Positions 6,878-46,339 are shown, counted from the stretch's first letter. The stretch is DNA of 50,652 nt from an uncultured Thiotrichales bacterium (GCA_938042355.1 CALIRD010000133.1:1-50652), one strand, 5' to 3'. Translations and numbers: made by a program. The notes: generated from the letters alone by a model not told the origin.

Positions 6878-6879
6878 TC

Positions 6880-17300: not shown

Positions 17301-19165
17301 GCTTCTTGAAAGTCTTCAGCCACCTCGGCTGGCTTTACTTTGACACCTGTTCCGCTTTGCAAATGAAACTCATGTACCCATGCCTTGTTATCCCCGCCTA
17401 ATTCAAGCCGGTAAGGTCGATCAGACATCACACGTAACCCCAGGTTTTCAATTACTGGCAATGCTTGTGAAGGTGCAATCGCTTCGCCCAGGGCAAATAA
17501 CTTCATCCGCACGTTACGACGCCCGCCCCCCGGGCTTTGATAGAGTTGTACACGCACTTTATTATTTTTATTGAGTAACTCGAACTGCATTGCATCAAGC
17601 ACACCAGAGCGCGCAGAGAAATCTGACTGATAACCCGGTCTGAAGGCATTGCCGTAACGGACCGCTAATTTACGACCCTTGTTTTCACCCAACTCATTTA
17701 CAAACTCTTCAGTAATGATGTCTTGCCAGGTTTTGGCAGCCTGCTGCAAACGTCGCTCAAGATCTGGTGTTGAAATTTTTTGTTTGCTTCCCTGCTTGAC
17801 CCTGACAATAAACTGAACCCGCGCCAGCACAGAGTGTGAAAAATAGGTTTGCGCCTGAATAGATTGACCCCGTAAGGCATCCATTAGCACTGCTTCAATG
17901 CGCTTGCGCAAATCGCGGTTATAGGTATTTCTGGGTATATAAACCAGACAGGTATAGAAACGGCTATAACGATCCTTGTTCATGAAAAAACGAACCTGCT
18001 TTCGTTCCTGCATGCTCAAAATGCCATGTGTTATTTCTTGCAGCTCAGCATTATCAATGGCAAATAAATTATCGCGCGGATAATTTTCAATAATATCGAT
18101 CAAGGTTTTGTAATCGTGTGAGCGTTTCGGCAAGTTACTTTGCTCCAGAACAAACTTTGCCTTTTTACTCACCAAGGGGATTTTCAATACACTCTTGTTA
18201 TAGGCGGTGGAGGTAAACAAACCCAGAAAACAATCTTGTCCAACAATCTTTCCTTGTTTGTTGTAACGATTTATACCAAGAAAGTCGAAATAACCAGCAC
18301 GATGAAGATGAGAACGTTGATTGGACTTCGCTACCACCAGGGTTTCTTCGCTATCGAGCAAGCCGGCGGTACCGCCTGGCAAATAGTCTTCATGCCCTTG
18401 ACGTAATAATCCCAAACCCGAGCCACGGGTATAATTCAGTGATTGGCGGTCGTTACTGAGTGAATCTTTGCAATAGCCGAGAAAAATAAAATTATCATCT
18501 TGCAGCCATTTGATAAAACGTGATGTTTCAGCAAGCCCACTAATGCCTTTCGTTCTCTTTAGCTCTGTACTGATCTGATCAAGCTGTTTAACTATTGGCT
18601 GCCAATCTTCACAACACGTTGCCACATCTTTCAGGACGGCACGCACCTCTTTAACGATACGATCCTGTCTTCTGCCAACACCGGACTTGTCCAGTTCAAA
18701 ATGCATTAACGATAAATGTGTGAAGCCTTTGCGCGCACGCTTGCCTGACACTATATCGACAACCTTGCCTTGTCTATTGCGCTTCACCGCCACCACGGGA
18801 TGTATCACCAAGCGAATATCCTGATTCAGGTCATTCAATTTCATAGTTACTGAATCGAGCAGAAAGGGGTTATCAGGGACCACTATCCGAAGAATAGAAA
18901 TATCACAAGCCAGTGGTGAGTGATAGAGATCCACTTTCGTTTGCTCTGGCTTGGAAGCGAGAACAACCCGTAGATGGCTTAAAACCTTACCAAGCAACTG
19001 GTCATCACTAATCGTCTCCAGCTCCTCGGGGGAGAGCAGATCAAAATACAATTCTGAAAAACGTTCAAATAGTGGCCGGTCTATTTTTGCTGCTGCCACC
19101 TCATCGATAACGACGCTACTGTTTAGTAAGCGTTTGATTCGATCATCTTGCCGATCCTTAGGCAT
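14360..19165 (-). CDS. gdhB: NAD-specific glutamate dehydrogenase, large (~180 kDa) GdhB type
   Basis: About 1600 aa. The central catalytic core (VPTGSKGGFY, GPDMGT-equivalent region, GIGDMAGDVFGNGML) is typical of the bacterial large NAD-GDH family. Start set to ATG 19165, which has AGGGA 7 nt upstream. Confidence 0.9.
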   Translation of the reverse strand: MPKDRQDDRIKRLLNSSVVIDEVAAAKIDRPLFERFSELYFDLLSPEELETISDDQLLGKVLSHLRVVLASKPEQTKVDLYHSPLACDISILRIVVPDNPFLLDSVTMKLNDLNQDIRLVIHPVVAVKRNRQGKVVDIVSGKRARKGFTHLSLMHFELDKSGVGRRQDRIVKEVRAVLKDVATCCEDWQPIVKQLDQISTELKRTKGISGLAETSRFIKWLQDDNFIFLGYCKDSLSNDRQSLNYTRGSGLGLLRQGHEDYLPGGTAGLLDSEETLVVAKSNQRSHLHRAGYFDFLGINRYNKQGKIVGQDCFLGLFTSTAYNKSVLKIPLVSKKAKFVLEQSNLPKRSHDYKTLIDIIENYPRDNLFAIDNAELQEITHGILSMQERKQVRFFMNKDRYSRFYTCLVYIPRNTYNRDLRKRIEAVLMDALRGQSIQAQTYFSHSVLARVQFIVRVKQGSKQKISTPDLERRLQQAAKTWQDIITEEFVNELGENKGRKLAVRYGNAFRPGYQSDFSARSGVLDAMQFELLNKNNKVRVQLYQSPGGGRRNVRMKLFALGEAIAPSQALPVIENLGLRVMSDRPYRLELGGDNKAWVHEFHLQSGTGVKVKPAEVAEDFQEAFMSVWRGEAENDSFNKLIVAAGLNWREVVILRAYSRYLRQLGLRYSESYVVDCLLEHAHIARLIIDCFRLLFDPQENHQREDQASELRTEILAAIDTVVNLDHDRILRHYLNLVECTLRTNYYQPDAKGDAKEYVAFKFDSNAIDGMPEPKPLYEIFVYSPRVEGVHLRGGRVARGGLRWSDRPEDFRTEVLGLVKAQMVKNTVIVPTGSKGGFYVKQPPQKGGRAAFLREGIACYKTFISGLLDVTDNLVGNDVIPPKGVVRRDGDDPYLVVAADKGTATFSDIANAVAKKYKFWLGDAFASGGSVGYDHKAMGITARGAWESVKRHFLELEHDIQKQPFTTVGIGDMAGDVFGNGMLLSRQIQLLAAFNHMHIFIDPDPNPEKSFRERQRLFNKPKSAWTDYNNQLISKGGGVYERSAKSIKLSVEAKAALGISASELTPNELIHRLLKAPVDLLWNGGIGTYIKSGSESHMDAKDRANDAVRVDGKELRCRVLGEGGNLGATQAGRIEFAQNGGRCYTDFIDNSAGVDTSDHEVNIKILLNAVREKGQLKEKQRNKLLATMTEEVAELVLDDNYQQSLALNLEQRQAGQRIREHARFIDVLEQQGVMKRELEGLATREELEDRYQQGLPLCWPELAVILAYSKIQCYEKVLASDLPDDPFARRVIEAYFPKVLIKKYRPEIVDHRLRQEIVATELVNKVINRCGPIFVFRIAEMTGHSYANIIAAFTCAWSLFDLDDYWEQVSALDNIVPVGVQASLYRDAIKTIQEATIWLLYYRPQPLDILTNIASIRPVLEIYQAMIVKSLSGKAKQYHAKRLQQLKRYKVPASLLQQAATMRLLPHALDVADVATNKEAEVAPVTEVYYAITGELKLYQLSQIIDGLKVENHWHLIAQHGLKTRLMRTHALICADIVTMGDTTARELLRAWKDSNKSALQRFLDTLDALKVKDVDFEVMTVLLSDLEALRQSLYSVDIASTR

Positions 19166-19555
19166 TGGCTGATCCCTGAGATACACATTTAGAAGTGTGG
19201 ATTATAGTCTTTTAAACACTAGTGACAATCGACGTTGACAGCATTGTCGAACCACCTCACATTTGCTCTTACTTTCGTGAAATGTTGCATCAAACAGATA
19301 AAATTCGAAATTATCAATGGGAGGAGGATGTATCAGAAACAGTTACATTTGATTCAATCCTTTCAAGCAATACTAAATTGCGCTGACTCAGACTTCGAAT
19401 CAATAAAGAAATTGTTATTTTGATAAATATCAATTGGTATAAGTTCTCATAATTACTCCAGACTTGAAAATTAAAACCCGGCAAAAATTCATTGCGCTAC
19501 TCATTAGATGTGAATTGCATTAGACTGCTTCAGCAAAAATAAAGAACCTACTCTC

Positions 19556-33060: not shown

Positions 33061-33924
33061 CTAGGCAAACATGCTGCGGCGATATTTAGAGGGTGTTTCC
33101 CCCGTATGACGCTTGAAGGCTTTTGTAAAAGCCACTACCGATTCATAACCAATCTTCTCTGCGATATCGGCTGGTCGTAAAGCTGAGGTTTGTAACAAGT
33201 CAATTGCGCGTTGCATACGCAAGTTGGTTAGATATTCAAACATGGGAACACCCACCAATTCGGTAAATCGTTTAGCTATACCTGAGCGTGACATACCTAT
33301 GTGCTCACCCAATGTTTGCAAAGTCCAGCTTTTCTCGGGTTCTGCATGCAGGCTCTCTAACGCTGTCGCAATTTTCTTGTCTTTTAAGGCTGTCAATAAA
33401 TTACGTTCTTCCACCATGCCAAAATTAATTCTCAATAACTCAACCACCATCACCTCGGTCAGTTTATTGACAATCAATTGCGAGCCAGGCGTGGTAGAAC
33501 GATACTCAAAACTCAACTGGTCGAGCACACTATTGAGCCAGCTTCGCTGTTGTAACTGGTCATTGCGGATAATGCTCATTCTGGGAAAAAGCGTACTCAA
33601 AGACCCATAGGCATGCTCTGTCACTTCACAATATCCACACATCAACAATGTCTCAGACTGATCGAGTGATATACCTTTTTCGGGCTGGTAACTTTCCAGA
33701 GTATGTGTCTCACCGGGACCCAGAAATATAAGATCTCCAGGCCCAAGTAAAAATTCGTTTTCTGCTGATATTACCCGACACGTCCCCTGACGTACCTGAT
33801 GAAAACTGGCGTGCTCCTGCCCTTCAAAGAGTTTACTCCACGGGTGCGCGAGCGCATCACAAAAATAGACACTACCTCGAGCCCTGAGACCCATTAAAAC
33901 ATCACTGAGAACATCAAATTCCAT
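33061..33924 (-). CDS. AraC-family regulator with N-terminal cupin (AraC_N/Cupin_6) domain, RclR-like architecture
   Basis: The N-terminus DVLSDVLMGLRARGSVYFCD parallels the RclR-type N-terminus as recalled. Cys22/49/96/99 are present. C-terminal AraC HTH (WTLQTLGEHIGMSRSGIAKRF...IAEKIGYESVVAFTKAFKRHTGETPSKYR). Confidence 0.8.
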   Translation of the reverse strand: MEFDVLSDVLMGLRARGSVYFCDALAHPWSKLFEGQEHASFHQVRQGTCRVISAENEFLLGPGDLIFLGPGETHTLESYQPEKGISLDQSETLLMCGYCEVTEHAYGSLSTLFPRMSIIRNDQLQQRSWLNSVLDQLSFEYRSTTPGSQLIVNKLTEVMVVELLRINFGMVEERNLLTALKDKKIATALESLHAEPEKSWTLQTLGEHIGMSRSGIAKRFTELVGVPMFEYLTNLRMQRAIDLLQTSALRPADIAEKIGYESVVAFTKAFKRHTGETPSKYRRSMFA

Positions 33925-34048
33925 TAATAATCCTGTAATTTACTCAATATTGGACGATTGGTAACTTTATTATGCACTTTTAGACATACATTATCCAAAT
34001 TAATTGGATCATTATAGTCACATATTCACAAAGCAAAAGGAACATAAA

Positions 34049-34327
34049 ATGTCACATATTGAAATTTACACAAAATCGTACTGCGGATACTGCCAACGCG
34101 CCAAGAAACTTCTGAAGCGAAAAGGACTGAGCTTTTACGAATATGAAATTACTCACGACGCGATCATGCGCGATGAAATGATCTCTCGCTCTGGTAGAAC
34201 GACGGTGCCGCAGGTTTTTATAGATGGGATTCATGTGGGAGGCGGTGAAGATCTGGCCAAAGCGAACGAGTCTGGCGAACTCGATCTGATACTCGGTTAT
34301 GTAAATGACGAGATTGCCTACGCATAA
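34049..34327 (+). CDS. grxC: Glutaredoxin (Grx3-like, atypical CGYC active site)
   Basis: IEIYTKSYCGYCQRAKKLLKRKG...SGRTTVPQVFIDGIHVGGGEDL is close to E. coli GrxC as recalled. AAGGAA lies 7 nt upstream of ATG 34049. Confidence 0.9.
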   Translation: MSHIEIYTKSYCGYCQRAKKLLKRKGLSFYEYEITHDAIMRDEMISRSGRTTVPQVFIDGIHVGGGEDLAKANESGELDLILGYVNDEIAYA

Positions 34328-34366
34328 GCTGTATCTAAACCCACCAAAATGAAAAAGGAGAAAAAC

Positions 34367-34861
34367 ATGGAAACAACAATTAATGACTCAAAAATTAGCA
34401 GTGCCCGCACTGCAACTCTAACGGATAAACTGACGTCTATTAGCGAAATAGCAACGCGTTACTCTGTGGTAATCGTACTAGCCTGGATCGGCGCCATGAA
34501 ATTTACCGCTTATGAAGCGGCTGCAATTCAAGGTCTGGTCGCTTCCAGCCCCTTCATATCATGGATTTATGGCATCCTGAGCGTTCAAGGAACCTCCAAT
34601 ATGATCGGAACAATCGAGATCATCACGGCAGCTGCAATTGCCTTCGGACATCTTAACAAACGTCTGGCAGTTGGCGGTGCATTGGCTGCAGTAGCTACCT
34701 TCACACTTACTCTAACTTTCTTGTTTAGTGCCCCGGGTTGGGAAGCAAGCCTTGGTGGATTCCCTGCTTTATCAGTTGTACCTGGACAATTCTTACTGAA
34801 AGATATTGTGCTACTAGCGGTCTCGTTTGGTTTGCTCGGCAAAGCATTATCAAGAGACTAA
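34367..34861 (+). CDS. DUF417 (YkgB/RclC-like) inner-membrane protein
   Basis: Four hydrophobic helices. WIGAMKFTAYEAAAIQGLVASSPFISW is the family-typical segment. AAGGAG lies 6 nt upstream of ATG 34367. Confidence 0.75.
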   Translation: METTINDSKISSARTATLTDKLTSISEIATRYSVVIVLAWIGAMKFTAYEAAAIQGLVASSPFISWIYGILSVQGTSNMIGTIEIITAAAIAFGHLNKRLAVGGALAAVATFTLTLTFLFSAPGWEASLGGFPALSVVPGQFLLKDIVLLAVSFGLLGKALSRD

Positions 34862-34903
34862 TCTAATACATTCAAATGCTAAGAAAGAAGTTTGTTAAGT
34901 CAC

Positions 34904-34927
34904 AAGGCCGCAATGGCGGCCTTTTTT
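34904..34927 (+). terminator. Rho-independent terminator after the grx-DUF417 pair
   Basis: AAGGCCGC-AATG-GCGGCCTT followed by TTTT. Confidence 0.85.
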
Positions 34928-35363
34928 AATACTGATGAATCAGTCTCAAGATGAACAAGATCTGTTTGTTGCTAATTTTTGCTTGGTTATTATTCAAACT
35001 CGTTGAGTAAAACTATCGCAATCAAGACAGCGCATGACTTACGCCCTTTGATTGCTTTTAATACAAATACTGCATGGATACTTGACCGTACCAACATCCT
35101 TTGTCTGAAGCTGTAACAAGGTTGAAGTCAATGGTACTGACTAAATGTTTATGCTCATGAATCTGCTAATTCTGGCTAAAAACAGACATAATCTATGATC
35201 AAAACGCTATAAGTTTCGATAATATTGATTGGATATCTTACTAATTAATCTACAATGATTGTGTGACAGAAAATGATGGGAGTTATTCTGCCACCTTGAT
35301 AGAGACATGTGACAACATTTACAAATGACTTCATAGAAAGTCAGTATCCGGGAGATTCATGAA

Positions 35364-36740
35364 TTGCCAATTAACACAAACAATCAGACAAAGCAGAACT
35401 TAATCTCTAAAGACCGTGCCTATGTCTGGCACCACTTGACTCAACATAGTGCCTTCGACAATAGCGATCCACTGATCATTGTCGAGGCTGAAGGCATGCA
35501 GCTTAAAGATGCGCATGGCAATATTATCCTTGATGCAACTTCGGGTGGATTGTGGACCGTCAACGTTGGCTATGGACGAGAACAAATTGCCAAAGCAATT
35601 GCCAAACAACTCACATCAATGCCGTTTTTTGCTGGTTATGGTGGCACTAAACCAGGCGCAGAATATGCCGAAGCATTACTAAAAAGAATGCCTGGGATGG
35701 GCCGTGTTTACTTTTCCAGCTCGGGCTCTGAAGCAAATGAAAAAGCATTCAAAATTGTCAGACAACTTTCGCACAAAAAATACGCTGGTAAAAAAAACAA
35801 AATAATTTACCGCGAGCGTGACTACCACGGCACGACCATCGCGACACTAAGTGCAACCGGGCAATTTGAGCGCAAAAACCAATATGGACCTTTTGTCCCT
35901 GACTTTGTCGAGATGCCACATTGCTGTGAATATCGTTGCCAGTATGAAGACAGCGATAACTATGGCGTTGATTCAGCCAATGAACTCAAAAAAATTATCT
36001 TAAAGGAGGGTGAAGAAAATATAGGCGCCGTGATTCTGGAACCGATAACAGCCGGTGGTGGCATTATTCCTGCACCGGATGGTTACTGGCAACGAATTCA
36101 ATCCATTTGCAGACAATACAATGTGCTACTGATTATTGATGAGGTGGTCTGTGGCTTGGGGCGTACGGGCAAGTGGTTTGGCTATCAGCACTATGATATA
36201 GAACCAGACATTGTCACTATGGCTAAAGGAGTTGCATCAGGCTATGCCGCCATTTCATGCACTGTGACTACTGAAGCCATCTTCGAAGAATTCAAGCAGG
36301 GAAACTCAAAACGTATGGATTACTTCCGGGACGTGTCAACTTTTGGAGGCTGCACGGCTGGTCCGACAGCTGCCCTACAATGCCTGAGAATACTGGAAGA
36401 AGAAAAACTGTTAGAGAATGCCAGCACGATTGGAGACTACCTAATGACTCGTTTGGTAGAGCTAAAAAGTAAACACGAGATCATTGGCGATGTCCGAGGC
36501 AAGGGACTACTGGCTGGACTTGAGCTGGTTGAAGATCGTCAAAGCAAAACACCAGTTGATGAATCCGTCATCATAAAAGTAGCGGCTCACTGTTTGAAAA
36601 ATGGAGTGTTGATTGGACGAACCAATCGCAGTTTTAAAGAATTCAATAATACCATTGCTTTATGCCCTGCATTGATTGCTACTACGCAAGACATCGATAT
36701 AATTGTTGCTGCAATAGATACAGCCATCAGCGAACTATAA
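35364..36740 (+). CDS. tpa: Class-III (omega) aminotransferase; likely taurine--pyruvate aminotransferase, based on linkage to xsc
   Basis: PLP-enzyme motifs: SGSEANEKAFK, DYHGTT, LLIIDEVVCGLGRTGKWFG, and MAKG (PLP Lys). TTG start with GGGAGA 7 nt upstream. Lies directly upstream of xsc. Confidence 0.7.
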   Translation: MPINTNNQTKQNLISKDRAYVWHHLTQHSAFDNSDPLIIVEAEGMQLKDAHGNIILDATSGGLWTVNVGYGREQIAKAIAKQLTSMPFFAGYGGTKPGAEYAEALLKRMPGMGRVYFSSSGSEANEKAFKIVRQLSHKKYAGKKNKIIYRERDYHGTTIATLSATGQFERKNQYGPFVPDFVEMPHCCEYRCQYEDSDNYGVDSANELKKIILKEGEENIGAVILEPITAGGGIIPAPDGYWQRIQSICRQYNVLLIIDEVVCGLGRTGKWFGYQHYDIEPDIVTMAKGVASGYAAISCTVTTEAIFEEFKQGNSKRMDYFRDVSTFGGCTAGPTAALQCLRILEEEKLLENASTIGDYLMTRLVELKSKHEIIGDVRGKGLLAGLELVEDRQSKTPVDESVIIKVAAHCLKNGVLIGRTNRSFKEFNNTIALCPALIATTQDIDIIVAAIDTAISEL

Positions 36741-36764
36741 AAATCTTTCTGGAGTATAACTATA

Positions 36765-38534
36765 GTGAAAATGACCACTGAAGAAGCGTTTGTCAAAGTC
36801 TTGCAAATGCATGGAATTGAACACGCTTTTGGCATTATTGGTTCGGCGATGATGCCGGTATCTGATCTATTTCCTGCCGCGGGTATCACTTTCTGGGATA
36901 CCGCACATGAGAATACGGCAGGTATGTCAGCTGACGGCTATAGCCGTGCTTCGGGAAAGATGTCAATGGCAATTGCGCAAAATGGCCCTGGCATCACAAA
37001 CTTCGTCACAGCCATTGCCAGCGCTTACTGGAATCATACACCGCTCTTGTTGGTGACCCCGCAAGCTGCTAATAAGACCATCGGGCAAGGCGGTTTTCAA
37101 GAAGTGCCCCAGATGAATTTCTTCAAAGATGTCGTTTGCTATCAGGAGGAAGTCAAAGATCCAACGAGGATGGCAGAAGTTCTGGATCGGGTCATTGCCA
37201 TGGCACGCAAGCGTTCTGCTCCGGCGCAAATTAATGTACCACGCGATTTCTGGACACAAGTAATTGATATAAAACTGCCATTACCAGTTGAATTCGAACC
37301 ATTGTCCGGTGGCGAACAAGCGATACAAACGGCGGCTGCATTATTATCCGATGCAAAATTCCCTGTCATGCTTAACGGCGGTGGAGTGGTCATTGGTGAT
37401 GCGATTGATGCCTCGAAGAAACTTGCTGAAAAACTCGATGCACCCGTTTGTTGTGGTTATCAGCATAACGATGCCTTTCCGGGCAAGCACCCCTTACACG
37501 TTGGTGCCCTTGGCTACAACGGCTCGAAAGCTGCAATGCAATTGATTGCTGAAGCTGATGTGGTACTCGCTCTGGGTACACGCCTTAATCCATTCTCTAC
37601 CCTGCCCGGCTATGGGCTTGACTATTGGCCCAGCAACGCAAAAATCATACAGGTAGATATCAATGCCGACCGCATAGGGCTGACCAAACCGGTCACTGTT
37701 GGTATTCGAGGCGATGCCGGACGTGTTGCCGAGCAAATTCTCGAAGCGTTATCTGACACTGCTGGAGATACAAACAGAGAAGTGCGTAGAGAAACCATCG
37801 CATCAACCAAAGCCAGATGGGCTGAAGAACTAGAGACCATGGATCATGAAGATGATGATGATGGCACCAACTGGAATGAGCGCGCTCGTGAGGACCATCC
37901 AGATCGCATGTCAGCCAGACAAGCATGGCGCGCCATTCAAAAAGCTCTACCTGACACTGCAATAATTTCTACCGATATCGGTAATAATTGCGCCATTGGT
38001 AATGCCTACCCATCCTTCGAAAGTGGCCGTCAATACCTGGCACCTGGCATGTTTGGCTCTTGCGGCTATGGCTTTCCCGCTATCCTCGGCGCGAAAATTG
38101 GTAGACCGGATCGGCCCGTAGTTGGCTTTGCTGGTGACGGCGCCTTTGGTATTTCCATGAATGAAATGACCGCTTGTGGTCGAGATGAATGGCCCGCCAT
38201 TACGATGGTGATCTTTCGTAATTATCAATGGGGTGCCGAGAAGCGTAACAACACCCTCTGGTTTGACGACAACTTCGTTGGCACCGAACTCGACACTGAC
38301 GTGAACTATGCCGAGATTGCCAAAGCCTGTGGTGTGAATGGTATACAAGTCAACACACCTGAAGAACTTACCAGCGAGCTGGACAGAGCTATTGCTGCAC
38401 AAATGAGTAATGGTGAAACCACTTTCCTTGAAGTGGTATTGAATCAGGAACTGGGCGAACCATTCCGTCGTGATGCAATGACTACACCGGTCGTGGTTGC
38501 AGGAATAAATCGTGAAGATATGAAGCCCCAATAA
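36765..38534 (+). CDS. xsc: Sulfoacetaldehyde acetyltransferase (ThDP-dependent)
   Basis: The N-terminus MKMTTEEAFVKVLQMHGIEHAFGIIGSA and later blocks (YWNHTPLLLVTPQAANKTIGQGGFQE, APVCCGYQHNDAFPG, LNPFSTLPGYG.DYWP) match Xsc proteins as recalled. ThDP motif GDGAF...N. Confidence 0.88.
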   Translation: MKMTTEEAFVKVLQMHGIEHAFGIIGSAMMPVSDLFPAAGITFWDTAHENTAGMSADGYSRASGKMSMAIAQNGPGITNFVTAIASAYWNHTPLLLVTPQAANKTIGQGGFQEVPQMNFFKDVVCYQEEVKDPTRMAEVLDRVIAMARKRSAPAQINVPRDFWTQVIDIKLPLPVEFEPLSGGEQAIQTAAALLSDAKFPVMLNGGGVVIGDAIDASKKLAEKLDAPVCCGYQHNDAFPGKHPLHVGALGYNGSKAAMQLIAEADVVLALGTRLNPFSTLPGYGLDYWPSNAKIIQVDINADRIGLTKPVTVGIRGDAGRVAEQILEALSDTAGDTNREVRRETIASTKARWAEELETMDHEDDDDGTNWNERAREDHPDRMSARQAWRAIQKALPDTAIISTDIGNNCAIGNAYPSFESGRQYLAPGMFGSCGYGFPAILGAKIGRPDRPVVGFAGDGAFGISMNEMTACGRDEWPAITMVIFRNYQWGAEKRNNTLWFDDNFVGTELDTDVNYAEIAKACGVNGIQVNTPEELTSELDRAIAAQMSNGETTFLEVVLNQELGEPFRRDAMTTPVVVAGINREDMKPQ

Positions 38535-38642
38535 TCTAGAGCCGAGTAAACTGAATACTAAAATAGAACCAGCTCTTGAGAAAGAAGCGTTTTCCTGCGA
38601 CGTCTGTAACTAATTCAGGAAATACTACCCCGTTTTTCACTC

Positions 38643-39689
38643 TTACCGGCGAGCTCGCCATTGCATGAAACCACTCAATAACCAAAAAGAAAGTGACAAG
38701 CCTATTACGGTCATGATCAAACCCCCTGTACGTCCCAACACATATCCCGTATGAACAGGGTATAGCCACCCCCTCAATCGACTTGCCTCATATACTCCAG
38801 ATGCGTAGATACTGGCCTCAGCAGTGTTTGGATCTATTAACACATCAGTCCGCCTCAAACGGGCATCAGTAAACGCGAACCAGTATTGTGCGGCATGCTC
38901 TCCCGCGTTTGAAAAGGCAGCTAAATGTTGATCACCGACAACACGGCTGGCAATCATATACGCAGTCGTCAGATCTATGTCTATTTGTTCTGGCGCACCA
39001 CCACGCATCGCAGCGAGCATATTTGTGGAAACCACACTCCTTCCATTTTCTTTCTCTTGCCAGATGGTGAGGTTTAATATCAACCCGGTACTGGCGGCAA
39101 CCAGCAATAATGGAGCGATCAATATACCTGTGCTTCGATGGTATTTTTTTACTCCTGAATAATGCATCGCAGACTTCCGTGTAATACGCCAATTCACAAT
39201 AGCTGTGATAAGAAAAGCTATACTCAAGAGAGCAAAAATACTAAGTACAATTCGACCCGGAACGCCATAGTTAGTCCATTTATGCAAACTGATTACCCGA
39301 CCCACCCAACCGACTGATGAATCTCTTTCAGCGATTACACTACCCTGATATTGATCAACAGTAACAATACGAGACATATCAAGACCAACGGGCTTGCGCC
39401 CACCCATGACTATCACCGCAGTCTTTGGCGAATTGGCTGCAGGGTACATAACATGTGCGGGTTTGAATTCTGGCTTATTCGCTTTAATCACTTCCAGAAT
39501 TTGAGCTGGTCCAAGCGCCTGGTTGGCAAACCTGTCAACGGCATAGATTTCCGGTTCGCTAAAACCCAGTAATGCGAAACGTTGTTGAGCCACAGCACCA
39601 GTGATTCCCTGAAAACAGATGAATAAACCGGTCAAAATGGCCAATCTTCGATGCCAGCGACGCCATAACTTTTGACTATTCAAGAGCAT
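38643..39689 (-). CDS. PepSY-associated TM-helix (PiuB-like) membrane protein
   Basis: N-terminus LWRRWHRRLAILTGLF, periplasmic loops, and C-terminal LHTG-type segment (WLYPVHTGYVLG) are typical of PepSY_TM proteins. Confidence 0.75.
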   Translation of the reverse strand: MLLNSQKLWRRWHRRLAILTGLFICFQGITGAVAQQRFALLGFSEPEIYAVDRFANQALGPAQILEVIKANKPEFKPAHVMYPAANSPKTAVIVMGGRKPVGLDMSRIVTVDQYQGSVIAERDSSVGWVGRVISLHKWTNYGVPGRIVLSIFALLSIAFLITAIVNWRITRKSAMHYSGVKKYHRSTGILIAPLLLVAASTGLILNLTIWQEKENGRSVVSTNMLAAMRGGAPEQIDIDLTTAYMIASRVVGDQHLAAFSNAGEHAAQYWFAFTDARLRRTDVLIDPNTAEASIYASGVYEASRLRGWLYPVHTGYVLGRTGGLIMTVIGLSLSFWLLSGFMQWRARR

Positions 39690-39831
39690 ATCTCTTTCGG
39701 TCTTTCATTCAACATCACTGTTTTGGGCTCAAGATAAGGAAGCAATCCCTTCAATCCTCCTTCACGACCGAGACCTGATTGAGCAAAGCCGCCAAAGGCA
39801 ATCGCAAAACTTGCTTTAGTGCCATTTTGAC
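39597..39831. repeat. Direct repeat copy A (ALDH-3'end / PepSY-5'end junction)
   Basis: Manual alignment to 44509-44743 at a constant offset of 4912 nt gives 6 mismatches in 235 nt. Confidence 0.9.
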
Positions 39832-39901
39832 AGAAGTACTGCTGATGATTGTCGAGACCAATGAAATGCAACTTAGAGATACCCAAGACAATTTTACTCA
39901 T
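39680..39901 (-). pseudogene. Remnant of an aldehyde dehydrogenase 3' end, fused to 25 unrelated codons (chimeric 73-codon ORF)
   Basis: Residues 26-68 (NGTKASFAIAFGGFAQSGLGREGGLKGLLPYLEPKTVMLNERP) equal the last 43 aa of the intact ALDH at 44607-46082, with one substitution. The TAA stop is mutated to AAA, so the ORF runs 10 nt into the PepSY gene. Confidence 0.85.
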
Positions 39902-39976
39902 GACACAACTTCGGGTGGGCTCGTTTGCTTAAGCTAAAGTGTAAACATGGATTCATAAACACACAATAAATTCAGG

Positions 39977-40915
39977 CTACATATTCAAACGCCTGATATC
40001 CTCAAGTAAATTCTTCAAGCACACCAGAAAACGTGCACCATCAGCACCGTTAATGATTCTATGATCAAAACCGAGTGTCAGGGTCAGCATTCTTCGCTCA
40101 ACCCATTCGCCGTCAATTAGCCTGGGAATTTGGTCGCTAGCGGCAACACCAACGATTGCTGCTTGGGGCCAATTAACTATAGGAAAAATTGAACTCAGAC
40201 CTATACCACCCAGGTTTGAAAGCGTAATTCCCGCTCCTTGAAAATCTTGTGGTAACAATTTTCGTTGTCTGGATCGATCACTGAGATTTTTCAGATCCTG
40301 CGATAATTCAACCAGATTCTTTGAGTCTACACCTCGTAAGGCAGGAACCATCAGTCCGTGCTCAGTATCTACCGCGACACCAATGTCTATATAATTTTTA
40401 TATATAATGACGTTATTTTCCTCATCCAACGAACTGTTCATTTTCGGAAAACTTTTGATGCCAACCGCCATCGCTTTGACAATTAATGCGGTAATGGTCA
40501 AATGAATATTATTTTGAGTTTTCAAAGACTGACGCCATTCTTCCAGATCAGTGATATCTACTTTTTCTTGTAGCCAGGCATGTGGAATTTCTTTCCATGC
40601 ACGACTCATATTGACACTGGTCGCCAGACCGATACCGGTCAGAGGTTCAGACCAACTCTCACGATTATTTACTTCTTGCTTGGCTCCGCTTTCATAGTGC
40701 TGTGAAGAGACAGACATTGTAAGTATTGAGGCTTCACGTGTATCGCCACTGCTATGCATATCAGTACGCAACAATGATTTAGCATATGCCTTGACGTCAT
40801 TAACAGAGACTCTAGCACCGGCATGTGCGGTAGCGACAGTGGCTATATCCACACCAAGTTCTCTAGCAAGACGTCGACTTGCCGGTCCGGCAGGTACATG
40901 CACTTCATCATTCAT
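39977..40915 (-). CDS. 2-oxoacid dehydrogenase E2 acyltransferase core lacking a lipoyl domain
   Basis: 312 aa. Begins directly with the peripheral subunit-binding domain (PAGPASRRLARELGVDIATV...VSVNDV), then a linker and the catalytic domain (SNLGGIG, DHRIINGADGARFL). No lipoyl-Lys motif. The ATG lies 3 nt after the E1 stop. Confidence 0.88.
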   Translation of the reverse strand: MNDEVHVPAGPASRRLARELGVDIATVATAHAGARVSVNDVKAYAKSLLRTDMHSSGDTREASILTMSVSSQHYESGAKQEVNNRESWSEPLTGIGLATSVNMSRAWKEIPHAWLQEKVDITDLEEWRQSLKTQNNIHLTITALIVKAMAVGIKSFPKMNSSLDEENNVIIYKNYIDIGVAVDTEHGLMVPALRGVDSKNLVELSQDLKNLSDRSRQRKLLPQDFQGAGITLSNLGGIGLSSIFPIVNWPQAAIVGVAASDQIPRLIDGEWVERRMLTLTLGFDHRIINGADGARFLVCLKNLLEDIRRLNM

Positions 40916-40918
40916 AAC

Positions 40919-43597
40919 TTAACTGGAGACCTCATTGAGTGATTCGGATTCAAACCTGCTTAGAGCCAGAATCTCTATTTGCTCAAGGTATGTTTGTTTA
41001 TCAATTTGTTTTTCCTGTAGTAAGGCAGAAATTGCTGCCTGCGCTATAAAGTCTGTGCTGATTTCAAAGAAATCTCTAAGATTTTCCCGGGACTCACTCA
41101 TACCATAGCCATCGGTTCCTAGCACCTCATAGCGACCAGGCAACCACTCTGTAATTGAGCCGGCCAAAGATTTCATCCAGTCGGTTGCAGCAATGAATAC
41201 TCCATTTTCATCTGCGAATAACTCGCTAACATAAGGAATGCGTCGCTCAGCAAGTGGATTAAGGCGATTACTGCGCTGACACTGTTGCGCATCTCGATAG
41301 AGTTCTGTAAAGCTGGTGATACTCCAGATATTGACGCAATAACCTAGTGCCTCCAGAATTTTATCTGCATCAAGCGCTTGTTGCATAATCGAACCACTCG
41401 ACAACAAGTTAATCACAGAGCCAGTTTTTAATGTCGAACGCTTGTAACAATACCCACCTTTTAGAATTTGCTCTGCTACAAGATCGCCTTCAGGGATTGC
41501 TGGCATTAGATAGTTTTCATTATAAACCGTGAGATAGTAAAAGACGTCTTCCTGATTGGTATACATACGACGGATACCATCGCGAATAACTATAGCCAGT
41601 TCATAACCAAACGCTGGATCGTAACTAACTAAATTCGGTACCGTAGTAGCCAAGACATGTGAATGACCATCCTGATGTTGTAAACCCTCACCATTAAGCG
41701 TAGTTCTACCCGCGGTACCACCGAGTAAAAAACCTTTGCACATCATGTCTCCACAACTCCAAATCATGTCACCAACCCGTTGGAAACCAAAAATAGAATA
41801 GAATATATAGAATGGAATCATCGGTATTCCATGTACCGCATAGGCGCTACCGGCCGCCATGAATGAAGCAATCGCGCCAGTCTCACAAATACCTTCCTGA
41901 AGAATTTGTCCTTGTTGTGATTCTTTGTACGGAGCAATAGTGTCCGCATCAACCGGCGTATAATTTTGTCCATTATGCGAATATATGCCGGAGACTCTGA
42001 ATAACCCATCCATACCGAAGGTTCGTGCCTCGTCAGGTACTATAGGCACAATATATTTTCCAATCTCCTTATCTCTTAGTAACTTGGACAATAAACGAAC
42101 TGTCACCATAGTGGTGGATATTTTACGGTCACCAGAGCCATTTAAAATATCACTGAAATCCTCAAGCGCCGGTGTTGTTATAGATGGGCAATCCACTTCA
42201 CGACTTGGTAAAAATCCACCCAATGCTTCACGCTGACCTAACAAGTACTGCATTTCAGGACTATCATCTGCTGGCCGATAAAACTCTGCCTTGGCCGCAG
42301 CTTCTTCAGTAATTGGAATACCATAGTCTTTGGCGAGTTGGATACGCTCATTAATGGTAAGATTTTTCTTTTGATGCGCCGTGTTTTTTCCTTGCGCTAC
42401 CGCGCCCATACCATCTCCTTTAACGGTCTTGCACAAGATCACAGTCGGTTTATTTTTTTCCAGTACAGCCCTAGCGTACGCAGCGAAAATTTTCTTGGGA
42501 TCCTGACCGCCACGTTTAATTGCTTGTAATTCAATATCTGTGAGAGAATTCATCATCCGCTCAAGTTCAGGATTGCCTTCTACCCAATGCTCACGTTGAA
42601 CTTCACCCGGTAGTATCGAGTAGCGTTGATAGTCACCATCCAGACAATTATCCATACGCTGTTGTAGCACCCCATTCACATCTTGCTCCAGTAAGACGTC
42701 CCAGCCGGAACCCCAAATCACCTTGATTACATTCCAGTCAGCACCACGAAAAGAACGTTCAAGCTCTTGAATGACTTTACCATTACCACGTACCGGGCCA
42801 TCGAGTCGCTGTAAATTGCAGTTAACTACGAGCACCAAATTGTCCAGATTTTCTCTGGATGCAATATTTATAGTACCCAGAACTTCTGGTTCATCAGCTT
42901 CTCCATCACCAATGAAACACCAGTATTTTCCACCTTTGTCTTCAATGAGTTGTCGGTTTATCAGGTATTTGGTAAATCGCGCATGATAGATTGCGGCTGG
43001 CGTCGATAAACCCATCGATGCATTTGGCATTTGCCAAAAACTAGGCAAAGAGCGAGGGTGTGGATAAGAAGACAACCCGCCACCCTTGCCAAGCTCACGC
43101 CGGTAGTTTAGTAGCTGTTGTTTTGAGAGACGCCCTTCCAGAAATGCACGCGCATAAATCCCGGGTGCGGCATGCGGTTGTGGCATGACAATATCACCAG
43201 CATGCCTATCAGTGGATGCCTTGAAAATATGATTAAAGCCAACTTCGAGGATAGTTGCAGCGGATGCATAAGTCGCAATATGCCCACCCACACCTGTACC
43301 TGTATCCTGAGCTTGCAGCACCATCGCCATTGCATTCCATCGAATTAGATTCTCTACCTTCTTCTCAATCTCAATATCACCTGGATAAACTGGCTGTCGG
43401 TTGAGAGGTATTGAATTGATGTAGGGAGTATTCAGTGTCGCTTCACTAATTGACAATCCATCAGAAATTAGATGATCGTGGAGGTTCTTGAGTAACTCGC
43501 GCGCAGCATCATCACCAAATTCAGAACGAATGTAATCGATTGACTCACGCCATTCTTTCTTGTCTTCCTCAAGTTCACTAATACTGACTGCTGACAT
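40919..43597 (-). CDS. aceE: Pyruvate/2-oxoacid dehydrogenase E1 component, homodimeric AceE type
   Basis: 892 aa, collinear with E. coli AceE as recalled (GGHIATYASAATI, GLSSYPHP, IGDGEADEPE, NCNLQRLDGPVRGNGK, GRTTLNGEGLQHQDGHSH, LGTDGYGMSESRENLR). GGAG lies 9 nt upstream of the ATG. Confidence 0.92.
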   Translation of the reverse strand: MSAVSISELEEDKKEWRESIDYIRSEFGDDAARELLKNLHDHLISDGLSISEATLNTPYINSIPLNRQPVYPGDIEIEKKVENLIRWNAMAMVLQAQDTGTGVGGHIATYASAATILEVGFNHIFKASTDRHAGDIVMPQPHAAPGIYARAFLEGRLSKQQLLNYRRELGKGGGLSSYPHPRSLPSFWQMPNASMGLSTPAAIYHARFTKYLINRQLIEDKGGKYWCFIGDGEADEPEVLGTINIASRENLDNLVLVVNCNLQRLDGPVRGNGKVIQELERSFRGADWNVIKVIWGSGWDVLLEQDVNGVLQQRMDNCLDGDYQRYSILPGEVQREHWVEGNPELERMMNSLTDIELQAIKRGGQDPKKIFAAYARAVLEKNKPTVILCKTVKGDGMGAVAQGKNTAHQKKNLTINERIQLAKDYGIPITEEAAAKAEFYRPADDSPEMQYLLGQREALGGFLPSREVDCPSITTPALEDFSDILNGSGDRKISTTMVTVRLLSKLLRDKEIGKYIVPIVPDEARTFGMDGLFRVSGIYSHNGQNYTPVDADTIAPYKESQQGQILQEGICETGAIASFMAAGSAYAVHGIPMIPFYIFYSIFGFQRVGDMIWSCGDMMCKGFLLGGTAGRTTLNGEGLQHQDGHSHVLATTVPNLVSYDPAFGYELAIVIRDGIRRMYTNQEDVFYYLTVYNENYLMPAIPEGDLVAEQILKGGYCYKRSTLKTGSVINLLSSGSIMQQALDADKILEALGYCVNIWSITSFTELYRDAQQCQRSNRLNPLAERRIPYVSELFADENGVFIAATDWMKSLAGSITEWLPGRYEVLGTDGYGMSESRENLRDFFEISTDFIAQAAISALLQEKQIDKQTYLEQIEILALSRFESESLNEVSS

Positions 43598-43781
43598 TTA
43601 GCTACTCCGCTTTTCAGGGTTACAGATATACGGTACCAATTTAAGAAGAATCTGGCTTGCGTATAGATGCTTAAGAAACACAAATATTAGTAATTTATGC
43701 CGTATATTTAAAATATTTAGCAATTTAATTTCAAAATATGCGATATTGTTGTTCAAGATTCAGAAGGACTTAATGCACAAT

Positions 43782-44264
43782 ATGCCTAAACTAAAACTTG
43801 ACCGTATCGATGCCAAGCTACTGACACTGATCCAGGCCAATGGCAGAATTTCTAATAACGAGCTGGCAGATAAAGTGGGGCTTTCACCTTCCCCCTGTTT
43901 ACGTCGCGTGCGATCACTTGAAAGCAGCGGCATTATTAAACGCTATGTCGGGATACTAGACCCGACTTTAGTCGGTCTAACTATTAATGGCTTTGTCACT
44001 GTCAGGCTAAAAAATCAGGGCCGTGAAGCATTAAAAGTCTTTGAAGATAAAATCAAAGCTTACCCTCAGGTTATGGAGTGTTACTTAATGACCGGCAATT
44101 CCGATTATCTGTTGCGTATTTCGGTTAAAGACCTTGGGAGTTATGAAAAATTTCTGATTGATAATATAACCACCATACCTGGTGTCGGAAACATAGAATC
44201 CAGCTTTTCTTTAAAGCAAGTTCTTTACCGAACTGAAATTCCTATCATTCCAGAACAAAATTAA
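43782..44264 (+). CDS. Lrp/AsnC-family transcriptional regulator, divergent from the E1-E2 pair
   Basis: LDRIDAKLLTLIQANGRISNNELADKVGLSPSPCLRRVRSLE (HTH_AsnC) plus a C-terminal RAM/AsnC_trans_reg domain. The start may instead be ATG 43773. Confidence 0.9.
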   Translation: MPKLKLDRIDAKLLTLIQANGRISNNELADKVGLSPSPCLRRVRSLESSGIIKRYVGILDPTLVGLTINGFVTVRLKNQGREALKVFEDKIKAYPQVMECYLMTGNSDYLLRISVKDLGSYEKFLIDNITTIPGVGNIESSFSLKQVLYRTEIPIIPEQN

Positions 44265-44284
44265 CATTGCTGGGTAAATTCGTG

Positions 44285-44601
44285 AGCCTTTTCTTGAAGT
44301 AGTAGGATTTCACTATCCAAAACTAAGCGAGACATATCCAAACCAGCTGGCTTGCGTCCACCCCTAACTATCACCACAGTCTTAGACGAACTGGATGCAG
44401 GCTCATAAGATCTGCGGGTTTAATTCTGGATTATACGCTTTAAGAACATCCAGTAATTGGGCTGGCTCAAATGCTTGGCAGGAATGCAAAAAGTTGTCGA
44501 GCAACGGTACCAGTGATTCCCTGAAAACAGATGAATAAACCGGTTAAAATGGCCAATCTTCGATGCCAGCGACGCCATAACTTTTGACTATTCAAGAGGA
44601 T
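44285..44601 (-). pseudogene. Degenerate copy of the 5' part of the PepSY-TM gene
   Basis: Alignable to 39310-39689. It is near-identical over the first ~90 nt of the gene, but ATG has become ATC. Beyond that it is visibly diverged, with a deletion of about 40 nt. No ORF of 60 codons or more remains. Confidence 0.8.
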
Positions 44602-44743
44602 ATCTCTTACGGTCTTTCATTCAACATCACTGTCTTGGGCTCAAGATAAGGAAGTAATCCCTTCAATCCTCCTTCACGACCGAGACCTGATTGACCAAAG
44701 CCGCCAAAGGCAATCGCAAAACTTGCTTTAGTGCCATTTTGAC
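44509..44743. repeat. Direct repeat copy B (ALDH-3'end / PepSY-5'end junction)
   Basis: See copy A. This copy retains the ALDH stop codon (TAA 44607-44609) but has lost the PepSY start codon. Confidence 0.9.
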
Positions 44744-46082
44744 CAAAAGTTCCGCTTCTGAATTGACGCGCAATTTCATACGCTTTGTGATTGTCGTTGG
44801 TGTAGACAGATCCATTTAATCCATACGGTGAGTCGTTGGCGATGCGAATAGCATCTGCTTCATCTGAGCACGGTATGACGCAAAGTACGGGACCGAATAT
44901 TTCTTCCTGGGCAATTGTCATGTTGTTATCAACATTCGCAAATACGGTTGGTTCAATGTAAAACCCTTGCGTTAGATGTGATGGACGCTTTCCACCGGTC
45001 GCCAACGCTGCTCCTTCTTCAATACCTTTTGCGATGTAACGTTCGATACGCTCAAGCTGTGACTTCGTGGTGATCGGCCCTAGCTGCGTTTTTGGATCAT
45101 ACGGCTCACCAACAATGATTTTTTCCATGGCTGCAACCAGATATTGAACAAACTCATCGTGACGACCACGAGAAACAATAATACGTGTGAGAGCAGCACA
45201 ATTCTGACCACTCATTACGGCTATACCGCTGGCCAGATCATCGGCGGCGGTTTGCAAGTCATAATCATCGAGTATGACAGCTGCTGATTTCCCGCCAAGC
45301 TCAAGCGTCACACGTGCAATTCGATCTGCACAAACCGAAGCAATATGTTGGCCGGTTGCCACACTGCCGGTGAAACTAACTTTGTCGATATGTGGATCGC
45401 GCACTAAATGATCCGAGGCATCTCGCTCGGCTGTAACGAGATTCAAAACGCCGGGGGGGAAACCCGACTCATCCGCACACTCAGCTAACAGATAAGCCTC
45501 GATCGGTGTTTGCGGTGCCGGCTTCATAATCACAGTACAGCCCGCCACCAAAGCGGGTCCGACTTTCGTCAGCATTGATGCCAGTGGCGCATTCCAGGGG
45601 GCAATTGCTGCCACCACACCTACCGGCTCATGAATCAGCATATTGCCGCTGTTTTCGGGAGGATGTTTTTCTATAAAGGAAAATGAAGTCGCTTGTTCAA
45701 TCGAACGATCAACGGCTGTGGCAGCATACTCAAGAGAATTATCTGACATCGATGTAATGACGCCGGTAGATTCGGTCCAGGCGGTTGCGAATTCCTTGCG
45801 TCGTCGTCGTAATGCCGTAGCAAAAACTTCCAGAATTTTTGCTCGCTCTAACGGCGTCATTCTTGCCCATGGACCGCTTTCAAATGCTTTATGAGCAGCA
45901 TCGACCGCCGCATCTACATCTTCAATGACCGCCTCGGCGACTTGAAAGACTACTTCCTCGGTAAATGGAGAGATGACATCAAGCAATCGATTGGTAGAGG
46001 GAACTACCCACTCGCCCCCGATATAGAGGTGTCGAAAATTGCTAGTGTCTAGTTCATGGGCTCGAGATGCTGTATGTGACAT
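44607..46082 (-). CDS. NAD(P)-dependent aldehyde dehydrogenase
   Basis: ALDH motifs: FTGSVATG, LELGGKSAAVIL (catalytic Glu), SGQNCAALTRIIV (catalytic Cys), EEIFGPV. ATG 46082 is preferred over TTG 46088. Confidence 0.92.
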   Translation of the reverse strand: MSHTASRAHELDTSNFRHLYIGGEWVVPSTNRLLDVISPFTEEVVFQVAEAVIEDVDAAVDAAHKAFESGPWARMTPLERAKILEVFATALRRRRKEFATAWTESTGVITSMSDNSLEYAATAVDRSIEQATSFSFIEKHPPENSGNMLIHEPVGVVAAIAPWNAPLASMLTKVGPALVAGCTVIMKPAPQTPIEAYLLAECADESGFPPGVLNLVTAERDASDHLVRDPHIDKVSFTGSVATGQHIASVCADRIARVTLELGGKSAAVILDDYDLQTAADDLASGIAVMSGQNCAALTRIIVSRGRHDEFVQYLVAAMEKIIVGEPYDPKTQLGPITTKSQLERIERYIAKGIEEGAALATGGKRPSHLTQGFYIEPTVFANVDNNMTIAQEEIFGPVLCVIPCSDEADAIRIANDSPYGLNGSVYTNDNHKAYEIARQFRSGTFGQNGTKASFAIAFGGFGQSGLGREGGLKGLLPYLEPKTVMLNERP

Positions 46083-46339
46083 TTTCAAATACTCGTATAT
46101 TGCAGACTTAGATGGATAATATCACCTGCTTCTATCCTCACTTATGCTTGCTGCAGACTGTATCGGCTAGCGGAAATTGCAATGATCTATTTCTATAGTA
46201 TTGAGAGCTAATTAATACTCTGAGATTTCACGTTTCTTGTCAATGATCACAAGAACCAATAAGTTCATGCTTGTAACGCTATTTCTTCGCGCTGGAACTG
46301 CTAAAATATCAATCACTATTCAAACCCTGAATCTGGCTT

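Follow-up and report, generated by a model that had tools for sequence, protein, structure and literature searches.

In a 50,652-nucleotide (nt) stretch of DNA from an uncultured Thiotrichales bacterium (GCA_938042355.1 CALIRD010000133.1:1-50652; hereafter referred to as the window), three genes, encoding an Lrp/AsnC regulator, an aceE-type E1 component and an E2 acyltransferase without a lipoyl domain (hereafter referred to as the lrp-E1-E2 module), lie between two direct copies of the junction of an aldehyde dehydrogenase gene (ALDH) with a PepSY-TM gene (PepSY). This locus is probably the scar of an old head-to-tail duplication of about 4.37 kb, the gutted spare copy of which now holds lrp-aceE-E2. 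The module itself is supported as an addition to the locus, bracketed by duplicated resident sequence: as already proposed in a preliminary description of this DNA, it appears to have been added, since the closest syntenic relative (L018) has no module and homologous modules are found elsewhere, in unrelated contexts. From the features described below, we infer the order of events, the role of gene conversion as homogeniser and the functional consequences. The comparison set comprised 103 loci in addition to the window; the organism is poorly sampled, with ALDH relatives at 82-86% identity.

A self-repeat search of the window yielded a direct repeat of 265 nt with 95% identity (39567-39831 versus 44479-44743), and pairwise alignment of 39597-39831 with 44509-44743 gave six mismatches in 235 nt (97.5% identity), reproducing the repeat as first counted by eye in the preliminary description. 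Each copy of this core contains, on the minus strand, the 3'-terminal 145 nt of ALDH, followed by a few bases and by codons 1-31 of the PepSY-TM gene (Pfam). Copy A (39597-39831, minus strand) consists of a 3' remnant of ALDH ('ALDH, 39690-39831) together with codons 1-31 of the intact PepSY; copy B (44509-44743, minus strand) consists of the functional 3' end of ALDH and the first 31 codons of a second PepSY, present as a pseudogene remnant (PepSY'). The junction reads CCG AAA GAG ATATG in copy A and CCG TAA GAG ATATC in copy B, and the AAA/ATG and TAA/ATC pairs reported earlier are thus present as described. 'ALDH is non-functional and carries a G to A change in the conserved GGFGQSG motif. 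The six mismatches are scattered over the core, the longest exact match between the copies being about 53 nt. The left edge of the core reaches the join point described below; at PepSY codon 31/32, about 25 nt short of the copy B deletion, identity falls sharply. Past 39831, an anchored test (1/300 shuffles) indicated that the ALDH remnant might continue leftward in diverged form, but an unanchored test did not, and this extension was treated as spurious, because the stretch overlaps the better-supported remnant described next.

The 145-nt stretch between copy A and the E2 stop codon, overlooked in the preliminary description, holds a remnant of a third resident gene, a class-III aminotransferase gene located about 4 kb away (AT3, 35364-36740, plus strand; Pfam Aminotran_3; 87% amino-acid identity to its neighbour in L018), which is probably of the taurine/hypotaurine type. 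In this pseudogene remnant (AT3', 39842-39956, plus strand), codons 37-63 (39842-39922) are joined to codons 363-374 (39920-39956), corresponding to 35472-35552 and 36448-36484 in AT3 and implying an internal deletion of about 900 nt. The first piece was recovered by blastn (39842-39918 versus 35472-35548; 75% identity over 77 nt, E=1e-8) and by blastx (LMIVETNEMQLRDTQDNFTHDTTSGGL versus LIIVEAEGMQLKDAHGNIILDATSGGL; 15/27 amino acids, E=1e-6), whereas the second matched codons 363-374 at 28/37 nt (blastx 7/12 amino acids, E=0.095). Over 81 nt, AT3' differs from AT3 at 22 positions (6/5/11 by codon position), with 12 amino-acid-changing codons versus four silent ones. The best match of AT3' among the comparison loci and the window was the resident AT3. 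Arrival of AT3' with the module was also considered, loci L104-L106 carrying an Aminotran_3 gene at a distance of 4 kb from E2, but was rejected: the identity of this gene to the resident AT3 is only 32%, and the remnant does not match it.

On the plus strand, the order is AT3, xsc (reading forward), PepSY (reverse), the last 145 nt of ALDH (reverse), AT3' (codons 37-63 and 363-374), E2, E1, lrp, PepSY' (codons 107 to 1, reverse) and ALDH (reverse). The right end of the resident unit ('ALDH, 39690-39831) is joined to its left end (AT3', from 39842), on the same strand as the parent sequences, as expected for a tandem duplication. The two ends of the second copy (AT3' on one side, PepSY'-ALDH on the other) lie in the expected order and orientation; the interior, comprising a second xsc (xsc2) and the greater part of AT3 and PepSY, is missing, with the module in its place. 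This layout is that of a head-to-tail duplication with a unit of about 4.37 kb, extending from about codon 32 of AT3 (approximately 35457-35471) to position -145 of ALDH. The putative join point, at 39832-39841, would connect ALDH position -145 to AT3 at about codons 32-36. Beside it, the parents share TAGTGCC..TT.GAC (ALDH TTTAGTGCCATTTTGAC; AT3 CATAGTGCCTTCGAC), which is suggestive of microhomology at the join.

Tandem duplications based on short homology are well documented in bacteria, including duplications arising spontaneously in Salmonella chemostats (PMC3411829) and, in Escherichia coli, selected duplications with a border microhomology of 9 bp (PMC11111574). The locus resembles these in the head-to-tail unit ends, the novel end-to-start join, the short shared sequence and the lack of a dedicated recombinase. 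It differs from them in being old (synonymous divergence, dS, of the remnant about 0.3) and in the replacement of most of copy 2 by unrelated genes; of the 4.4-kb unit, only about 0.6 kb is still present in duplicate, and the microhomology at the join is imperfect and only marginally significant.

The fate of the spare copy can also be followed in PepSY' (44321-44596, minus strand; codons 1 to about 107, start codon ATC; delimited by alignments). Beyond the core, it continues as a diverged extension with about 78% identity to the intact PepSY (38643-39689, minus strand; Pfam PF03929; aligned with L018), the nearest homologues of which are only 55% identical. The existence of an indel-bearing extension, previously placed at codons of about 30-125, was confirmed, but it ends at about codon 107, past which (approximately 44328-44321) an anchored extension was no better than shuffles; the remnant stops about 57 nt from the lrp stop codon. 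Its lesions comprise deletions near codons 40-59 amounting to about 46 nt in all (one block of 44 nt), two single-nucleotide deletions and a stop at codon 60. Between codons 32 and 106, differences from PepSY are distributed 10/6/14 by codon position, with 18 amino-acid-changing and eight silent codons (dS 0.32; nonsynonymous divergence, dN, 0.17; dN/dS ratio, omega, 0.53), and five residues that do not vary among the 18 members of a family alignment are replaced (A32T, Q35R, R37L, H79D and M95R). An omega of 0.53 is close to that expected for one copy drifting neutrally while the other is under selection. Given this ratio, the loss of five invariant residues, the stop and the frameshifts, PepSY' is a paralogue decayed as a pseudogene, rather than a foreign functional orthologue. 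The preliminary description had left the choice between these two open and had named a paralogous fragment, together with an insert compositionally like its flanks, as speaking against its scheme; the first of these two elements is what we observe.

These observations bear on a scheme in which linear foreign DNA entered by homology-facilitated illegitimate recombination, anchored in a homeologous PepSY with a crossover near codon 31, its other end being joined illegitimately at ALDH position -145 of a sister chromosome. On this view, the core would have been newly duplicated from recipient DNA and the diverged extension would derive from the donor, so that no gene conversion would be needed to explain the abrupt change in identity at PepSY codon 31/32. 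We nevertheless consider this scheme improbable: the neutral decay of PepSY' and the loss of invariant residues do not suit a functional donor gene, the presence of an equally decayed AT3', derived from the resident gene, between copy A and the module is left unexplained, and the tandem-duplication topology argues against it. AT3' and PepSY' are both, from their divergence, decayed paralogues of similar age.

Identity between the duplicated segments is bimodal, at 97.5% in the core and 73-78% in the PepSY' and AT3' remnants, and the difference in divergence (6/235, or 2.5%, versus 22-27%, about 24%) was highly significant (Fisher p=2e-13). The dS values were 0.05-0.08 for the core and 0.32 for the PepSY' extension. 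As the window and L018 differ by a dS of 1.2 for ALDH (omega 0.07) and 2.2 for xsc (omega 0.02), the duplication, with a dS of about 0.3, is younger than the split from the L018 lineage. The bimodal pattern is predicted by no single-event model, be it a Campbell crossover, a fresh duplication or an illegitimate recombination at one end. The non-functional halves of the core ('ALDH in copy A and PepSY' codons 1-31 in copy B) should have decayed like the other remnants, and the core tract is nonetheless significantly more identical than the paralogous sequence flanking it. The simplest reading of this discontinuity in identity is intrachromosomal gene conversion restricted to one uninterrupted homologous block. 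Since a single late conversion would overwrite the functional half with the decayed half, conversion would have been repeated, with selection acting through the functional copy, or would have involved two tracts of opposite direction. The L018 outgroup polarises three of the six core differences, the others being ambiguous: GGT to GCT (in the GGFGQSG motif) and AAG to AAA are derived in copy A, where ALDH is non-functional, and a silent TTG to TTA change is derived in copy B. These polarised changes fit a decaying remnant and a working gene that has been under constraint since homogenisation last occurred.

Gene conversion and concerted evolution are familiar in bacteria from tufA/tufB and the rRNA operons. 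The general pattern of gene conversion between duplicated sequences has been described (PMC2720389), and the core resembles it in being a block far more identical than the surrounding paralogous sequence, with sharp limits coinciding with heterology. It differs in that the block spans a gene junction, each half of which is functional in only one copy, and conversion is here deduced from the discontinuity in identity.

In Campbell-type integration, circular DNA enters by one homologous crossover. Several features of the locus are reminiscent of this process: direct repeats of resident sequence bracket the added DNA, each flanking gene is intact once, and recombination between the repeats would excise the intervening DNA precisely. 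The preliminary description had attributed the layout to just such a crossover with a circle carrying a homeologous ALDH/PepSY junction, but this view is not sustained. The repeats would be expected to abut the insert on both sides, whereas the 115-nt AT3' lies between copy A and E2; divergence between donor and recipient should be uniform along the repeat, but six differences in the 235-nt core contrast with about 22-27% in the extension and AT3'; and the "homeologous" part is a decayed paralogue. No circular donor carrying both the module and the homology was found in the collections searched (E1 at most 52% identical in PLSDB), although absence from these collections is no proof.

The idea can be amended by letting the circle carry the aminotransferase remnant. 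A sibling allele, AT3'-module-PepSY'-ALDH, in which the module had replaced xsc, would have been circularised from AT3 codon ~32 to ALDH position -145, or recombined unequally, and integrated through homologous recombination at the junction of an intact AT3-xsc-PepSY-ALDH chromosome. This Campbell-type or allelic merger leads to the same final topology as duplication in situ and requires no persistence of an unstable 4.4-kb duplication; it also sits well with the changing contexts of the module, once beside a phage-type integrase gene, and with the variability of the region downstream from ALDH among L018, L019, L020, L102 and L103. We regard it as rather unlikely, given that the donor allele has never been seen, E1 has no close plasmid relative in PLSDB (52% amino-acid identity or less) and compositional deviation is mild. 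Moreover, a merger predicts uniform divergence, so later gene conversion would still be required to account for 2.5% versus 22-27%.

The in-situ duplication that we favour can be laid out in five steps. First, PepSY would already have been located between ALDH and xsc, using an ATG within the ALDH tail. Second, an illegitimate join, probably aided by microhomology, would have connected ALDH position -145 to AT3 codon ~32, giving AT3-xsc-PepSY-'ALDH / 'AT3-xsc2-PepSY2-ALDH. Third, about 2.9 kb of the redundant copy 2 ('AT3 codons 375-458, xsc2 and PepSY2 codons ~108-348) would have been swapped for the 4.36-kb lrp-E1-E2 module, 'AT3 additionally losing about 900 nt internally. The second and third steps may have been one complex event; alternatively, two alleles may have merged, as above. 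Fourth, the leftover AT3' and PepSY' codons 32-107 would have drifted neutrally to 73-78% identity. Fifth, the only uninterrupted homology left would have been the 235-nt junction, bounded by the join point and the deletion of about 45 nt, and intrachromosomal gene conversion would have held it near-identical; with each half functional in one copy, selection would have removed damaging variants from both.

Several points weigh against this history. No relative shows an intermediate, be it a single-copy AT3-xsc-PepSY-ALDH arrangement or a full duplication, and no remnant of xsc2 was found. Given the instability of a 4.4-kb tandem duplication, arrival of the module must have been fast or part of the same event, and, a single late conversion being inadequate, repeated or opposite tracts must be assumed. 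The second piece of AT3', although collinear with the first, is weak by itself (E=0.095), and a 7-nt exact match this near the join was reached by 145 of 5000 shuffles (p about 0.03), which is marginal. Finally, the contig comes from a single metagenome assembly without read support. The window appears to be one whole metagenome contig with proteins in single-member clusters, and a chimeric assembly passing twice through a junction shared by two co-occurring strains could be envisaged. Such an artefact is distinctly improbable, because the longest exact match between the copies, about 53 nt, would allow normal large k-mers to separate them, two non-homologous joins (39831/39842 and approximately 44321) would have to exist physically, and both outer flanks are syntenic with a single contig, L018.

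The approximately 4.4 kb between the repeat copies encodes only Lrp, the aceE-type E1 and the lipoyl-less E2, the content first proposed being borne out by Pfam, NCBIfam and alignment. The Lrp/AsnC regulator gene (43746-44264, plus strand; Pfam) is divergent from E1 (40919-43597, minus strand), a homodimeric aceE-type enzyme (NCBIfam TIGR00759, 1179 bits versus a cut-off of 860). E2 (39977-40915, minus strand; 312 amino acids) begins 3 nt past the E1 stop codon, right at the peripheral-subunit-binding domain, which is followed by the catalytic domain (Pfam); alignment with relatives of 452-457 amino acids shows that about 145 N-terminal residues are missing and that the catalytic DHR motif is retained. 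The closest E2 relatives (L014-L016, 60% amino-acid identity) do carry a lipoyl domain; other lipoyl-less E2 proteins, of about 301-304 amino acids, are P0033, P0094, P0106 and P0136. A more open biological question, beside the present finding, is the pairing of an aceE-type E1 with an E2 lacking the swinging arm, which recurs in other genomes.

No integrase or transposase gene is present between the repeats, no tRNA gene was found in the window, and the inverted repeats detected were at most 75% complementary and not terminal; the duplicated flank is hundreds of nucleotides long, unlike a short target-site duplication. The earlier conclusion that this is not a classical mobile element therefore holds. 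An Rfam scan of 38.4-46.4 kb revealed no RNA family, and promoter-like and terminator-like sites were not commoner than in shuffles. The G+C content of the module was 0.429, versus 0.456 for the window and 46-50% for adjacent genes; at third codon positions, it was 0.36 for E2, 0.38 for E1 and 0.40 for Lrp, versus 0.438 +/- 0.035 for the other 36 open reading frames (ORFs). In tetranucleotide distance to the rest of the window, the module ranked 11th among 93 equal-sized sliding windows. Compositional deviation is thus mild and, alone, provides no evidence of foreign origin: the insert is AT-richer, as stated before, but only slightly so, and comes close to the likeness to its flanks that the preliminary description had listed as adverse.

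The lrp-E1-E2 module is known in four other contexts, each with a different neighbourhood. Divergent Lrp, E1 and E2 homologues occur in L015 and L016 (E1 77%, Lrp 75-78% and E2 60% amino-acid identity), and L104-L106 have a homologue with an E1 72% identical. L014 has only the E1-E2 pair (E1 78%, E2 60%), a nearby Lrp downstream being 38% identical. In L104-L106, Lrp and E1 are accompanied by a lipoyl-less E2 of 301 amino acids (6001-6906), beyond which lie a Mo-hydroxylase subunit, a ThiS-like protein, an MFS transporter and an aminotransferase. The L015 module (L015 237-6469) lies directly beside a phage-type integrase gene (Arm-DNA-binding and Phage_integrase domains) at the contig start, an arrangement hinting that genomic islands can carry the module as cargo; with ARAGORN, no tRNA was detected in the L015 locus. 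Across these contexts, the module behaves as a unit that changes place. No plasmid-borne E1 relative above 52% amino-acid identity was found in PLSDB, and blastn of the short module flanks against all comparison loci returned nothing revealing an earlier context of the module. The window shares with genomic islands and integrative elements (attL/attR) a duplicated 3' gene end flanking cargo, and the L015 homologue lies beside an integrase gene; it differs from them in having no integrase, tRNA or att-like short core, and in a repeat of 235 nt with decayed extensions into two further genes.

The resident genes form a sulfoacetaldehyde/taurine-type cluster, with the class-III aminotransferase, Xsc (NCBIfam equivalog) and a convergent aldehyde dehydrogenase. 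The intact sulfoacetaldehyde acetyltransferase gene, xsc, corresponding to copy 1 (36765-38534, plus strand; NCBIfam TIGR03457, 916 bits versus a cut-off of 676), encodes a protein with 94% amino-acid identity to that of L018, and the intact ALDH (Pfam Aldedh) is located at 44607-46088 on the minus strand. L018 has amino-acid identities of 86% for ALDH, 94% for xsc, 87% for the aminotransferase, 79% for an SDR protein and 68% for DUF4920. Its genes are arranged as DUF4920-MTHFR-ALDH and then, 7 nt further on, the convergent xsc and the aminotransferase gene, inside which the contig ends; neither PepSY nor the module is present. The region downstream from ALDH differs in each of L019, L020, L102 and L103; in L103, it contains a small ORF and a glutaredoxin gene, followed by a homologue of the AraC-like gene of the window (33061). 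The stretch from ALDH to this AraC/RclR-like regulator gene (33061-33924; window 33061-46088) differs in every relative and looks like a hot spot of gene gain and loss. L102 (ALDH 82%, followed by a convergent Lrp) was rejected as a candidate for an ancestral ALDH-module adjacency, its Lrp being only 32% identical and not followed by an E1.

An empty site with ALDH adjoining PepSY, which the preliminary description had expected in related genomes, was not found in any relative examined: none of 13 genome loci with PepSY homologues (36-53% amino-acid identity) had an ALDH at a distance of up to 10 kb. PepSY was also used for a metagenome scan, which returned nothing. The corresponding scan with xsc returned 80 loci of at most 77% identity, none with an orthologous ALDH beside xsc or with the module, and is uninformative. 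Exact-sequence look-ups of the PepSY and ALDH of the window yielded no match.

The C-terminus of ALDH bears on which of the two junctions has changed. Four of the six closest relatives (P0142-P0144 and P0146) end in ...EQPEEIFS*, ...EEPAGLFS*, ...EQPDGVFN* and ...EQPDGLFS*, P0145 and P0147 having different C-termini. Reading through the AAA of copy A gives ...ERPKEICS*, with the stop at the position equivalent to that in these four relatives; the TAA of copy B lies five codons earlier (window 44607-44624), and an in-frame EISS* can still be read behind it. Parsimony on the stop codon alone is tied, L018 having GAA at this position. The conservation of the downstream codons in frame, up to an equivalent stop, suggests that the longer ALDH tail is ancestral and the TAA of copy B a derived premature stop. 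Polarity would thus probably be the reverse of that first assumed, in which copy A had lost the stop by a change from TAA to AAA.

PepSY itself also appears to be a newcomer. Its ATG is located within the ancestral C-terminal coding sequence of ALDH (alignment with L018), its codons 4-10 (ATAGTCAAAAGTTATGGCGT) are collinear with the L018 ALDH-xsc spacer and the last three xsc codons (ATAGTCAGAGCTTATTGCGG; 15/20 positions match), and homology to the PepSY family begins only at about residue 9-10. The collinearity of the 5' codons and the late onset of family homology suggest that PepSY was captured between ALDH and xsc before the duplication of the junction. PepSY codons 1 to about 9 are composed of three parts, namely the tail of ALDH, the former spacer between ALDH and xsc, and the antisense strand of the final three codons of xsc (window 39660-39689 and 38526-38545; L018 4355-4392). 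The motif TTATKGSGK is present at the PepSY start (TTATGGCGT) and at the current xsc stop (TTATTGGGG); this pair could be a target duplication of about 9 nt, or microhomology, from the earlier capture of PepSY.

Some consequences can be proposed for the present arrangement. PepSY now follows E1-E2 on the same strand; no terminator-like site separates them, and PepSY may be read from the module promoter. ALDH is likely to end five codons early as a result of the derived stop. Precise loss of the module could result from RecA-dependent recombination between the 235-nt repeats. A 73-amino-acid ORF (39680-39901, minus strand) runs through the ALDH remnant, its TGA overlapping the PepSY ATG, and would retain the original coupling geometry. 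It is scarcely probable that the junction repeats have been kept near-identical because they are useful, either as an integrase-free RecA-dependent switch by which the module is excised, amplified or passed on as a circle, or through the expression of remnant ORFs, with the 73-amino-acid ORF as a translational-coupling leader and a 42-amino-acid ORF as a one-helix small membrane protein.

The structure has no mechanism of its own, all the processes concerned (short-homology duplication, replacement within a redundant copy, pseudogene decay and gene conversion) being known. It is neither a new class of element nor a new biochemical system, but an ordinary rearrangement scar, of which it is a well-resolved instance. 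On the history proposed here, it would provide a natural example of a chromosome gaining an operon without mobile-element machinery, through a disposable duplicate, the interior of which was replaced by foreign or relocated genes. Conversion would keep alive a short junction repeat that could later delete the module precisely. For genome scans, it calls for caution: junction repeats around cargo mimic plasmid-style integration, and the deciding clue was the 115-nt fragment of a third gene in what seemed to be a spacer.

Two ORFs may also be mentioned. The 42-amino-acid ORF (44467-44595, minus strand), which begins with TTG 8 nt after the ALDH stop codon, encodes the first transmembrane helix of PepSY'. 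Elsewhere in the window, a very large ORF, of 1608 amino acids, is located at 14360-19186, on the minus strand.

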